NCBI GenBank assembly: GCA_028279595.1
Contig: JANQNK010000004.1
Coordinates: forward strand, 160,001-224,000
DNA: 64,000 nt
From: Thermoplasmatota archaeon
GTDB taxonomy: Archaea; Thermoplasmatota; JAKEGO01
Direction: 5' to 3'
Part shown: piece by piece, positions 8,621-63,789 of the stretch
Layout of the letters: every line of letters starts with the position of its first letter
Numbering within the stretch: position 1 is the stretch's first letter
Position numbers and translations under genes: made by a program
Notes under the pieces: model-generated
Seen by the model: only the letters and a program-made list of their open reading frames with translations
The model's database searches: none
Told to the model about the DNA's origin: nothing

Positions 8621-10861
8621 TCAGAGATGCTTCGAGATTATCTCGTTCCAAGTCGGGCTTGGGCGCATGGCTATCGTGCACATCTCGTCGTCGGTCCGAT
8701 AGTAGCCGCCTAGCTCCTCCGGCTTGTCCTGGGCTTCCAGAAGCTCCTGCAGGATCTTATCCGCATTCGATTCCAGTTCCTCGGCCAGAGGCGTGAACTT
8801 CGCCTTCAGTTCCGCGTCAGCGTCCTGCTCGGCCATCTCCCTGGCCCAGTACATGGTCAGGTAGAACTGGCTGCCGCGATTGTCGAGCTCGTTCACGATC
8901 CGGGACGGTGAGCGGGCGTTGTTGAGGTATTGGCCGTTCGCCTTGTCCAGTGCGTCCGCGAGCACCTGCGCTCTCGGGTTGTCCGTGACGTTGGCGAGAT
9001 GTTCCAGGGATGCGGCCAGAGCCAGGAACTCACCGAGCGAATCCCATCTCAGGTGGCCCTCCTCCTGGAACTGCTGGACGTGCTTCGGTGCGGAGCCTCC
9101 AGCACCGGTCTCGAACAGTCCTCCGCCGTTCATCAACGGTACGATGGACAGCATCCTTGCGCTCGTTCCGACCTCGAGGATCGGGAACAGGTCGGTCAGA
9201 TAGTCCCTCAGCACGTTGCCGGTGACGGATATCGTATCCTCGCTCCGGGCCATCCTTTCGACCGAGAACTGTGTCGCAGAGATCGGGTCCATGATATGGA
9301 TCTCGAGTCCCTCGGTATCATGGTCTGGCAGGTACTGGTTCACCTTCTTGATGAGCTCGCGGTCGTGAGCCCTTTCCTCGTTCAGCCAGAAGACCGCCGG
9401 GAATCCGGACTGCCTCGACCTGCGGACCCCAAGACCGATCCAATCCTGAATCGGAAGGTCCTTGACCTGGCACATGCGGAAGATGTCGCCTTCCTCGATC
9501 GGACGCTCCAGTAGGACATTCCCGGCGGCTGAGACCACCTGGACCTTCCCGTCGCCGGGCGACAGGAACGTCTTGTCGTGGGAGCCGTACTCCTCGGCCT
9601 TCTGCGCCATGAGCCCGACGTTCTGGACGGTTCCCATGGTCACTGGGTCGAACGCGCCATGCTCCTTGCAGAAGTCCACCACGACCTTGTAAACTCCAGC
9701 GTAACTGCTGTCGGGTATGACGAACTTCGTGTCCTGGAGCTTGCCGTGCCGGTTCCACATCTGGCCCGAGGTGCGGAGCGCAGCGGGCATAGAGGCGTCT
9801 ATGATGATGTCGCTCGGGACATGTAGATTGGTTATTCCCTTGTCCGAGTTCACCATGGCCAGCTCGGGGCCGGCGTCTATCGCGGCTGCAATATCGGCCT
9901 TTATCTCCGCCTCCTTCTCGTCCGGTAGCGCAGCGATCTTCTGGTAGAGGGCGCCGAGCCCATTGTTCGGGCTGATCCCGAGCTCTTCGAAGGTCCCGGC
10001 GTGCTTCTCGAACACGTCCTTGAAGAAGACCTCGACCACGTGGCCGAAGATGATCGGGTCCGATACCTTCATCATGGTCGCCTTCAGGTGCACCGAGAAC
10101 AGGATGTCGTTTGCCTTCGCGTCGGCGATCTGTTCGCCTAAGAACTGCCGAAGAGCCTTCCTGCTGAACACGGAAGCATCGATTATCTCGCCGTCGATGA
10201 GGGCGAGGTTCTCCTTCAGCGGTTTCTGGGTGCCGTCGTTTCCAACGAACAGTATCGTCGAGTCGCCGGCATCCGCGGCCGTGACCGTGGTGGACACCTC
10301 GTTGTGTGCAAGGTCGCCGTGGTCCATGAAAGCCACGTGGCTCTTCGATTCCGGTGTCCACTCGCCCATCGGGTGGGGGTTCGCCTTGGCGTAGTTCTTG
10401 ACCGAGCCGGGTGCGCGCCTGTCGGAGTTGCCCATCCTCAGGACGGGGTTCACGGCACTGCCCTTGACCTTGTCATAACGCGCCTTGATCTCGCGGTCCT
10501 CGTCCGTCTTGGGATCCTCCGGGTAGTCGGGGAGGTCGAATCCCTTCCCCTGGAGCTCCTTGATCGCTGACGTCAACTGAGGTATCGACGCGCTGATGCA
10601 TGGAAGCTTGATTATATTCGCCTCCGGCCTGTTGACCAGCTCGCCCAGCTCGGCGAGGTCGTCGCTCACGAACTGCTCCGACGTCAGCCGCTCCGGGAAC
10701 TTCGCCGCCGTTCTTCCGGCGAGCGAGATGTCCCTGGTCTCTACCTTGACCCCCGCTGCGCCCGTGAATCCCTTCACTATCGGTAGGAAGGAATACGTTG
10801 CAAGTGCCGGCGCCTCGTCGACCTTCGTGTAGATTATCTTGCCTTCTATCTTATCGCCCAT
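8621..10861 (-). CDS. icd: Monomeric NADP-dependent isocitrate dehydrogenase
   Basis: 746 aa; [62 protein letters not shown]. Confidence 0.97.
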
Positions 10862-10895
10862 TTCGAATCTCTCCTTATGTATTGCTTCAGATCGT

Positions 10896-62332: not shown

Positions 62333-63193
62333 ATGTTCGACAAGGACAAGTTCATAGACGCTGCCGTCAAAGGTCTCCGCGACGGCGTCGTGGAGCTGCC
62401 GCCGGACGTCACCGAGAGGATACGGACGGCGTACGAGAACGAGACGAGCGACATCGCCAGGATGCAACTGAAGGCGATACTGGACAACATCGACCTCGCC
62501 CACGATGAGGGTCTACCTTTGTGCCAGGACACGGGCGTTCAGCTCTTCTTCGTCAAGGCTGGCTACGATTTCCCTTACCTGTCAGATGTCATGAAAGCGA
62601 TACCGGAGGCGATAGAACGGGCGACGGCCGAGGTGCCCTTGAGGCCGAACACGGTCGATCCGTTCACCGGCGTCAATCCGAAGAACAACCTCGGGCACAA
62701 CATGCCGGCCGTGACTGTCGAGCTTGTCGAGGGCGACGGCGCCACTGTCATCGTATTTCCAAAGGGCGGCGGGAGCGAGAACATGTCCGCTCTCTGGATG
62801 CTCACGCCCGCAGAGGGTTTCGACGGTGCAAAGAGGAAGATCCTGGAACAGATGCAGTATGCCGCGGGGAAACCGTGCACCCCAGTGGTGCTGGGCATCG
62901 GGTTCGGCGGCGGCGCCGACATCGCACTCAAGCTCGCCAAGAAGGCGCTCCTGAGACCGTTGGGGACGGAGAATCCGATCCCGGAGGTGGCGGCGATGGA
63001 GAAGGAATTGATGGACGACGTCAACTCAATCGGCATAGGCCCCATGGGGCTGGGCGGCAGGACGACCGCTCTTGGGGTCCACATCGAACATACGGTGAGG
63101 CATCCGGCGACGTTCCCGGTCGCCATGGTGGTCCAGTGCTGGTGCGACCGCCGGGCCATCGTCAAGCTCGACGTCAACGGGGAGGTGGTCTGA
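62333..63193 (+). CDS. fumA: Class I Fe-S fumarate hydratase alpha subunit
   Basis: PLCQDTG, KGGGSEN, PCTP, GIGPMGLGG, QCWCDRR. Fumarase rather than tartrate dehydratase is inferred from context. Confidence 0.85.
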   Translation: MFDKDKFIDAAVKGLRDGVVELPPDVTERIRTAYENETSDIARMQLKAILDNIDLAHDEGLPLCQDTGVQLFFVKAGYDFPYLSDVMKAIPEAIERATAEVPLRPNTVDPFTGVNPKNNLGHNMPAVTVELVEGDGATVIVFPKGGGSENMSALWMLTPAEGFDGAKRKILEQMQYAAGKPCTPVVLGIGFGGGADIALKLAKKALLRPLGTENPIPEVAAMEKELMDDVNSIGIGPMGLGGRTTALGVHIEHTVRHPATFPVAMVVQCWCDRRAIVKLDVNGEVV

Positions 63194-63789
63194 TGACCGA
63201 GTACAGGCTGCAGACTCCGATAGACGAAGAGACCATCGCCGGACTGAACGCCGGCGACATCATCTACATATCAGGGACCGTCTTCACGGCGCGTGACGAG
63301 GCTCACATGGAGCTTCTCAAGGACGGGGAGCCGGAGGGTCTGGACATGACCGGGCTCGGCCTCTACCACTGCGGACCGGTGATGAAGCAGACCGATGGAG
63401 TATGGCAGGTCGTCTCGGCCGGACCGACCACGTCGTTCAGGATGGAGACGCTCGAGCCGGGTTTCCTGGATATGTTCGGAGTCAAGGTCATCATCGGAAA
63501 GGGCGGAATGGGGCCGGGGACCCTGGCCGCGCTCGAAAAGCACAATGTCGTTTACGCGACCTTCACGGGGGGTGCTGGAGCGCTAGCTGCAAAGGGACTT
63601 GGTCGAGTGGCTGCAGTCCATTATCTTGAAGAGCTCGGCATGCCAGAAGCGGTCTGGATCTTCGAAGCAAAGGATTTCGGCCCTCTCGTTGTCTCGATGG
63701 ACGCTCACGGAAACTCGTTGTACGCCGACGTCGACGCTGAGACGAAGGCCAACCTGAAGGCTATCTTCGAGAGAAAGGGGCTTGACTGA
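63193..63789 (+). CDS. fumB: Class I Fe-S fumarate hydratase beta subunit
   Basis: TGATG overlap; TARDEAH, YHCGP, SAGPTTS.RM, IGKGGM, LGMPEAVW, MDAHGNS. Confidence 0.88.
   Translation: MTEYRLQTPIDEETIAGLNAGDIIYISGTVFTARDEAHMELLKDGEPEGLDMTGLGLYHCGPVMKQTDGVWQVVSAGPTTSFRMETLEPGFLDMFGVKVIIGKGGMGPGTLAALEKHNVVYATFTGGAGALAAKGLGRVAAVHYLEELGMPEAVWIFEAKDFGPLVVSMDAHGNSLYADVDAETKANLKAIFERKGLD

Follow-up and report, generated by a model that had tools for sequence, protein, structure and literature searches.

A complete ATP-citrate-lyase-type citric-acid cycle in a Thermoplasmatota archaeon, with fumarate reductase and 2-oxoglutarate synthase genes set in an Hdr-type gene run

The stretch of DNA analysed here (the window, 64,000 nucleotides) comes from contig JANQNK010000004.1 of the Thermoplasmatota archaeon assembly GCA_028279595.1, positions 160,001 to 224,000, and encodes the enzymes of an ATP-citrate lyase (ACL)-type citric-acid cycle. 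A first-pass annotation had placed all eight steps of the cycle within about 55 kb (8621–63789), and profile searches recovered each enzyme at or near the position proposed for it. The three marker enzymes of the tricarboxylic acid cycle in its reductive form (rTCA cycle), namely ACL, 2-oxoglutarate:ferredoxin oxidoreductase and fumarate reductase, are encoded as it had claimed, the fumarate reductase being assigned from conserved active-site residues and context, with no curated cut-off reached. The less ordinary part of the locus is not the archaeal ACL; it is that the genes of fumarate reductase and 2-oxoglutarate synthase stand inside a cluster of the electron-splitting heterodisulfide reductase (Hdr) type. 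The window corresponds to G000:C1:160001-224000 in our numbering, where G000 is the source genome (2.29 Mb, 21 contigs denoted by C-numbers, 86% complete). Relatives were taken from 40 sampled Thermoplasmatota genomes (G-numbers), of which G001 represents a second genus of the window's family. Two further loci are L059, a relative from a Joint Genome Institute (JGI) metagenome, and L094, the Cloacimonadota contig JAIPIH010000008.1.

The contig is not bacterial, because a full archaeal small-subunit (SSU) rRNA gene, for which the archaeal model outscores the other SSU models, is present in the genome on contig C18, the window's own contig encodes geranylgeranylglyceryl phosphate (GGGP) synthase (PcrB) and a PAC2 proteasome chaperone, TATA-like boxes precede the starts of mdh and sucC by about 25–35 nt, and every named close homologue of the clustered flavoprotein comes from Thermoplasmata/Thermoplasmatota metagenome-assembled genomes (MAGs). 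The earlier assignment to an archaeon, likely of the Thermoplasmatota, is thus borne out by the closest named homologues and by the same-family genome.

The citrate module is encoded on the minus strand. Its first gene in the direction of transcription codes for an aconitate hydratase of the 650-aa type (14036–15988; NF005558, 930 bits against a cut-off of 612), followed by AclB (12744–14039), AclA (10896–12743) and a monomeric NADP-isocitrate dehydrogenase (8621–10861; TIGR00178, 1227 bits against a cut-off of 950; PF03971, 1244 bits). AclB contains the ATP-grasp domain (PF24948, 253 bits against a cut-off of 83) and the ACL-specific citrate-binding domain (PF16114 Citrate_bind, 290 bits). 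AclA consists of CoA-binding, CoA-ligase and citryl-CoA-lyase domains, and its GHAGA phosphohistidine motif (His at residue 273) is followed by the citrate-synthase-like citryl-CoA lyase domain. Among solved structures, AclA and AclB match best the subunits of Methanothrix (Methanosaeta) concilii ACLY-A/B (PDB 6HXI/6ZNW), also a two-subunit archaeal ACL, with 794 bits to 6HXI_B and 535 bits to 6HXI_A, versus 392 and 184 bits to the Chlorobium limicola ACL. The two window genes are therefore predicted, from their domains and motifs, to form the two-subunit ATP-citrate lyase AclAB. The search for a separate citrate synthase that the first-pass annotation had called for found none in the 86%-complete genome, in which AclA holds the only citrate-synthase domain. 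Between acn and sucCD (16092–17447, minus strand) lies the gene of a 451-aa protein that has a ligand-binding AsnC/Lrp domain. It occupies the same position in L059 and may regulate the cluster.

The acn-aclB-aclA-idh genes are one operon, which recurs near-unchanged in Cloacimonadota bacteria. Homologues of AclA at 74–79% identity occur in Thermoplasmatota and also in Cloacimonadota, Krumholzibacteriota and one deltaproteobacterial MAG. A quick maximum-likelihood tree of AclA, built without the M. concilii sequence and without G001, placed the window sequence together with Thermoplasmatota, Cloacimonadota and Krumholzibacteriota sequences in one clade of good support. A second clade holds Bathyarchaeia, some Thermoplasmatota relatives (G005, G031) and the Methanosarcinales MAGs, which thus fall apart from the window sequence. 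L059 has the gene arrangement of the window and an AclA 93% identical, whereas the AclA of G001, from the window's own family, is merely 61% identical. The Cloacimonadota contig L094 carries an identical acn-aclB-aclA-monomeric-idh block at 6735–14108, with 77% identity in AclA. Because bacterial AclA sequences at 74–79% identity fall in the same clade and the Cloacimonadota block is identical, the citrate module appears to have been exchanged as an operon across domains, between archaea and Cloacimonadota/Krumholzibacteriota, in either direction.

On the plus strand beyond the regulator gene lie the two subunits of succinyl-CoA synthetase, SucC (beta, 17662–18828; NF001913, 557 bits against a cut-off of 370; with the TTG at 17662 as corrected start) and SucD (alpha, 18821–19702; NF004230, 437 bits against 336). 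The same strand carries, at the far end of the region, a malate dehydrogenase of the LDH-like family (56682–57563, with a corrected start at 56682; 305 bits against a cut-off of 283), which has the Arg typical of malate dehydrogenases at the specificity position, in IARKPDMTR. Class I fumarate hydratase is encoded there as an alpha (62333–63193) and a beta subunit (63193–63789, start corrected to 63193), both recognised by profile matches. The four subunits of 2-oxoglutarate:ferredoxin oxidoreductase are encoded on the minus strand as the small two-cluster KorD (40255–40512), KorA (39084–40265; 541 bits against a cut-off of 411), KorB (38206–39084) and KorC (37664–38218), the last two identified by profile searches. 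The solved structures nearest to KorA are 2-oxoglutarate-type enzymes.

Directly before korD in transcription lies the gene of the fumarate-reductase-like flavoprotein (40527–42176, minus strand), whose best NCBIfam match is NF004900 (TfrA) and which the NCBI annotation calls just "FAD-binding protein". The protein has a conserved 92-aa N-terminal extension, and Pfam matches its FAD-binding domain only, with no match to the FrdA/SdhA C-terminal domain. In an alignment by Escherichia coli FrdA numbering, the residues of the fumarate site and of proton transfer are kept (H232, T244, E245, R248, R287, H355 and R390), and His44, which binds FAD covalently, is replaced by Asn. Flavoproteins without the covalent FAD link still reduce fumarate and oxidise succinate poorly. 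A reading of the protein as L-aspartate oxidase is disfavoured rather than formally excluded: the nadB model scored 249 bits against 311 for TfrA, and the Fe-S/CCG partners speak against it.

Three genes stand directly upstream of the TfrA-like gene in transcription, all on the minus strand. They encode a 254-aa protein with one [2Fe-2S] and two [4Fe-4S] clusters (42177–42941, from profile and motif reading), a 297-aa HdrB-like protein with two complete CCG motifs (HdrB', 42938–43831), and an HdrC-like protein with two [4Fe-4S] clusters (HdrC', 43838–44389, true start probably near 44269). The Fe-S and CCG parts are thus encoded separately rather than in a single TfrB protein, and an HdrC-like gene is added. 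By their motifs, the Fe-S protein and the CCG protein would amount to the N-terminal and C-terminal halves of a TfrB split in two, with HdrC' as a putative extra wire. The first-pass annotation had named a soluble fumarate reductase A/B at this place. A fumarate-reductase-like flavoprotein and an Fe-S partner are indeed present at 40527–42941, but the partner is not a classical SdhB, and the flavoprotein also belongs together with the HdrB-like and HdrC-like subunits and with an extensive Hdr/Flx gene set.

Outside the window, at G000:C10:42193-44711 (L043 8193-10711), lie the genes of a canonical SdhA, which has the covalent-FAD His, and of SdhB. No membrane-anchor or CCG genes adjoin this pair. 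Next after it comes a protein of the C_GCAxxG_C_C family, and just before it a fused hydantoinase/oxoprolinase-like protein of 1201 aa.

The tfr and kor genes are part of an operon-like run of 23 minus-strand genes extending from 56215 down to 28913, with gaps of at most 60 nt bar one and with many overlaps. The run begins with a GlcD-like FAD oxidase (54773–56215), a GlcF-like Fe-S/CCG protein (53709–54767, start corrected to 54767) and a lipoate-protein ligase (52650–53699). These are followed by HdrC (52160–52648; TIGR03290, 138 bits), HdrB (51276–52163; TIGR03288, 308 bits, with CCG motifs), a tandem-fused HdrA-like flavoprotein (HdrA 3, 48253–51279), an MvhD/FlxD-like protein with a C-terminal extension of about 110 aa (47489–48253; PF02662, 184 bits) and a second tandem-fused HdrA (HdrA 2, 44484–47492, start corrected to 47492). 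A listing of longest ORFs hides mvhD, as it gives the adjoining hdrA frame a spurious N-terminal extension of 101 codons that covers the gene. Then come HdrC', HdrB', the Fe-S protein, the TfrA-like flavoprotein, KorD, KorA, KorB and KorC, and a further tandem-fused HdrA (HdrA 1, 34501–37680), a paralogue of HdrA 2 and 3. The last part comprises an Fe-S protein with a weak FrhB-like region (33143–34450), a Fer4_22 Fe-S subunit paralogous to the sulfhydrogenase beta part (AsrA/ShyB-like, 32066–33130), a FlxA-like NAD(P)H/FAD/[2Fe-2S] subunit paralogous to the sulfhydrogenase gamma part (ShyC-like, 31135–32097; PF00175, PF10418), a LarA-like 2-hydroxyacid racemase homologue (29851–31095), an OsmC-like protein (29402–29884) and a GcvH-like lipoyl carrier with Lys at the expected lipoylation position (28913–29341; PF01597, 138 bits). 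The FlxA-like protein is 37% identical to a hydrogenase-linked fusion on C10. All the Hdr homologues of the genome lie within this run, and a second GcvH and a second lipoate-protein ligase are encoded on C18 and C5, respectively.

The run contains a gene set of the Flx/MvhD-HdrABC type. HdrA is of bifurcating type, HdrB has two CCG motifs, HdrC has two [4Fe-4S] motifs, and both FlxD (the MvhD-like protein) and FlxA (the NAD(P)H/FAD/2Fe-2S protein) are present; where FlxB and FlxC were looked for, the run has Fe-S proteins that resemble AsrA/ShyB and, weakly, FrhB. The CCG and ferredoxin motifs are intact in the Hdr and Tfr proteins. HdrA 3 scored 698 bits to the methanogen HdrA structure 5ODC versus 160 bits to the HdrA structure 6TJR of a sulfur oxidiser, so by its nearest structures HdrA is predicted to be of the methanogen, bifurcating type. 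The same scores disfavour a reading of Hdr, GcvH and lipoate ligase together as a sulfur-oxidising sHdr-LbpA system, as does the finding that the GcvH/LplA linkage occurs in only two genomes, both of the window's family. A predicted GcvH-HdrB complex scored zero, a value that carries no weight either way.

The gene order is conserved beyond the genus. G001 has the whole supercluster in the same order, from aconitase/sucCD to the GlcD-like gene, with proteins 55–82% identical, and keeps both the gcvH-osmC neighbourhood and the lipoate ligase beside hdrC. Full-length orthologues of the TfrA-like protein (at least 56% identity) were detected in 10 of the 40 Thermoplasmatota genomes, and ACL was found in 14. 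The Fe-S protein adjoins the TfrA-like gene in all seven contexts examined, and HdrB'/HdrC' with an HdrA, usually also MvhD, stand beside it in the contexts other than the short contigs of G012 and G022. Direct adjacency of korDABC to the TfrA-like cluster was seen in G001, G003, G005, G012, G021 and G022. The core of Tfr, HdrB'C', HdrA and MvhD together with Kor extends over at least six families of the phylum.

Some further genes lie among those of the cycle. Two LarA-like genes, of the nickel-pincer 2-hydroxyacid racemase family, are found at 29851–31095 (minus strand) and 60543–61778 (plus strand); together with the GlcD/GlcF-like FAD/CCG dehydrogenase pair, their products may act on malate, 2-hydroxyglutarate or lactate. 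A 429-aa protein (59102–60391, plus strand) consists of four tandem C-terminal domains of AMP-binding enzymes (PF13193 four times, 178 bits) without an adenylation domain. Between the sucCD side and gcvH, a NosD/beta-helix repeat protein of 2261 aa (22025–28810, minus strand) is encoded in a stretch whose G+C content is lower, at 0.50 versus about 0.59–0.62. This stretch looks like an insertion because the sucD-gcvH distance is about 1.2 kb in G001.

The first-pass annotation had noted that pyruvate synthase and an oxaloacetate-replenishing carboxylase were not in the window, and both were found elsewhere in the genome. Pyruvate:ferredoxin oxidoreductase (PFOR, 1232 aa, 1897 bits) is on C19, and a two-subunit pyruvate carboxylase, PycB (760 bits) with an adjoining biotin carboxylase, is on C4. 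An archaeal-type phosphoenolpyruvate (PEP) carboxylase was not found in the genome, and its role is filled by pyruvate carboxylase. Pyruvate phosphate dikinase (PPDK, 1295 bits) is on C13. With PFOR, PycAB and PPDK, the exit and anaplerotic set of the ACL-variant rTCA cycle is complete. RnfD is encoded at G000:C18:86314-87210 and also in G001 and G002; it was not found in G003 or G005. Neither a NuoD-type complex nor a haem-copper oxidase was found in the genome. The Wood-Ljungdahl pathway was rejected as an alternative fixation route, as CdhC was not found in G000 or in six relatives. A homologue of the RuBisCO large subunit (250 bits) lies at G000:C21:546-1382, with counterparts in G001 and G002.

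The implication that an ACL-type rTCA cycle would be new to archaea was overstated. Earlier papers describe such a cycle in MAGs of the Thermoplasmatota (Garritano et al. 2022, PMC9802188) and in Great Salt Lake Thermoprofundales (PMC11287216), and a partial rTCA cycle is a core feature of Candidatus (Ca.) Penumbrarchaeia, where it is read as amino-acid catabolism (PMC12220078). These reports share with the window the phylum, the AclAB, Kor and fumarate reductase markers, and the argument between autotrophy and amino-acid catabolism; the clustered fumarate reductase of the window differs in being of the soluble Tfr/Hdr type. No description of a Tfr-Hdr-Kor supercluster in Thermoplasmatota was found in the literature searched, which did not include subscription journals.

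An architecture close to this one is known from bacteria. In the rTCA clusters of the gammaproteobacteria Ca. Endoriftia persephone, the Escarpia symbiont and Thioflavicoccus mobilis, kor and tfr genes are interspersed with flxABCD-hdrABC, and it was proposed that one NADH-driven bifurcating complex feeds both fumarate reductase and 2-oxoglutarate:ferredoxin oxidoreductase (Rubin-Blum et al. 2019, PMC6315080). The proposal was restated in 2026, citing co-expression. Clustered aclAB, acn, idh, mdh, korABCD and tfrAB are common to these genomes and ours, as is an Rnf in the genome; the likeness is one of architecture. The window differs from the gammaproteobacterial clusters in its archaeal host, in its three copies of a tandem-fused HdrA, in a TfrB divided between two proteins with an extra HdrC, in a Flx-like module that consists of sulfhydrogenase beta/gamma paralogues and an FrhB-like protein, and in the inclusion of genes for GcvH, lipoate ligase, GlcDF and LarA-like proteins.

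The second comparison is with methanogens, in which a disulfide couples the reduction of fumarate to the bifurcating HdrABC. The TfrAB of Methanothermobacter, with its MvhADG-HdrABC, shares with the window system a flavoprotein and an Fe-S/CCG partner, solubility and independence of quinone. However, the window flavoprotein scored 311 bits against the TfrA cut-off of 718, its TfrB is divided in two, and the genome is not that of a methanogen and yielded no Mvh hydrogenase.

From the gene content and order, their conservation and the active-site residues, we infer the formation of a complex, electron bifurcation and a reductive direction of flux. NAD(P)H would deliver electrons to the Flx-like module, and the flavin of HdrA would split electron pairs between fumarate and ferredoxin. 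On the downhill branch, electrons would pass through HdrC', HdrB' and the Fe-S protein to the TfrA-like flavoprotein, with its FAD held non-covalently, and on to fumarate. On the uphill branch, reduced ferredoxin would serve the co-encoded Kor, and also PFOR, for reductive carboxylation. By our own estimate from standard potentials, the reaction of 2 NADH with fumarate and oxidised ferredoxin is exergonic by about 40 kJ and the reverse confurcation is endergonic. Oxidative use of the system is disfavoured because confurcation is endergonic and the covalent-FAD His is missing. Tentatively, and with more doubt than confidence, we suggest that Tfr, Hdr and Flx may constitute a quinone-free bifurcating NAD(P)H:fumarate/ferredoxin oxidoreductase that hands ferredoxin directly to Kor. 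Fumarate would take the place of the heterodisulfide in such an enzyme, either directly or via a protein-bound dithiol such as lipoyl-GcvH, for which a ligase is encoded in the cluster.

For the locus as a whole, we favour a complete ACL-type citric-acid cycle, in an anaerobe, whose two redox-difficult steps are wired reductively, a reading for which we see belief and doubt about evenly poised. The cycle would allow mixotrophic carbon assimilation and redox balancing during peptide fermentation, and the organism is probably not an obligate autotroph. Several observations weigh against this reading. The TfrA-like flavoprotein falls below every curated FrdA/TfrA cut-off (NF004900, 310.8 bits against 718), and the SdhAB encoded on C10 could carry the succinate/fumarate step instead. 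The six 2-oxoacid:ferredoxin oxidoreductase (OFOR) alpha subunits and four ADP-forming acyl-CoA synthetase (ACD) homologues in the genome appear to point to peptide and amino-acid fermentation. The sole [NiFe] hydrogenase found is group-3b-like, resembling the NAD(P)-linked sulfhydrogenases, and is the only lithotrophic equipment found. The earlier suggestion that the organism fixes CO2 by the rTCA cycle goes too far in view of this hydrogenase and of the OFORs and ACDs, as autotrophy cannot be read from the genome. Among the 10 genomes with the Tfr-Hdr cluster, five also have ACL and five gave no ACL match (G003, G010, G011, G021, G035); because these five carry the module without an ACL match, the Tfr-Hdr-Kor module is independent of a closed cycle. 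All absences of genes from the genome are provisional at 86% completeness.

The occurrence of the module in relatives where ACL was not found also speaks for the most serious alternative, a branched pathway without net autotrophy, which we consider unlikely but by no means negligible. Tfr, Hdr and Kor would then form a reductive, biosynthetic branch from oxaloacetate to 2-oxoglutarate and glutamate, as in methanogens, and the arm of isocitrate dehydrogenase, aconitase and ACL would turn amino-acid-derived 2-oxoglutarate into acetyl-CoA and oxaloacetate during peptide fermentation. The many OFORs and ACD homologues are consistent with such a scheme, as is the fact that the nearest ACL operon outside the phylum belongs to the fermentative Cloacimonadota, and a branched pathway has already been proposed in Thermoplasmatota (Ca. 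Penumbrarchaeia, PMC12220078; PMC9123169). However, the gene set is complete, the presence of PFOR, PycAB and PPDK leaves closure of the cycle unhindered, and all the steps are held in one 55-kb region in two genera.

A second alternative keeps the bifurcating complex and changes its purpose. In a quinone-independent fumarate respiration that mainly conserves energy, NAD(P)H would be bifurcated to fumarate and ferredoxin, Rnf would oxidise the ferredoxin again and pump ions, and the TCA genes would just supply fumarate. Caffeate and crotonyl-CoA respiration are models for such Rnf-coupled bifurcating respiration. The bifurcating-type HdrA and NAD(P)H module would suit it, as would RnfD in G000, G001 and G002 and the failure to find a NuoD-type complex or an oxidase; a fumarate reductase flavoprotein was named as the sole terminal reductase in Thermoprofundales MAGs (PMC11287216). 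Nevertheless, G003 and G005, both carriers of the module, yielded no RnfD, and the tight and conserved linkage to korDABC suggests that ferredoxin goes to Kor, so that we regard fumarate respiration as improbable. Finally, the other option of the first-pass annotation, an oxidative cycle as in Desulfobacter with ACL as an ATP-yielding citrate synthase and full oxidation of acetyl-CoA, would fit the finding of no separate citrate synthase and the canonical SdhAB with the covalent-FAD His on C10, but is very improbable, as complex I-type and oxidase genes were not found, the clustered flavoprotein lacks that His, confurcation of succinate and reduced ferredoxin to NADH is endergonic by the above estimate, and the SdhAB genes have no adjoining anchor genes.

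The source of sufficiently reduced ferredoxin for 2-oxoglutarate and pyruvate synthesis in rTCA organisms is still described as unresolved (PMC10052474). The window adds one more Thermoplasmatota lineage with a full ACL cycle, which is not by itself proof of archaeal autotrophy. In its conserved run, archaeal genes for fumarate reductase and 2-oxoglutarate synthase are joined with an Hdr/Flx set of bifurcating type. This linkage matches the independent proposal made for the tubeworm symbionts and offers a second, phylogenetically distant system for a biochemical test of the bifurcation idea. If the proposed bifurcation is true, the Tfr-Hdr module would account generally for the way anaerobes meet the cost of the ferredoxin used in reductive carboxylation.

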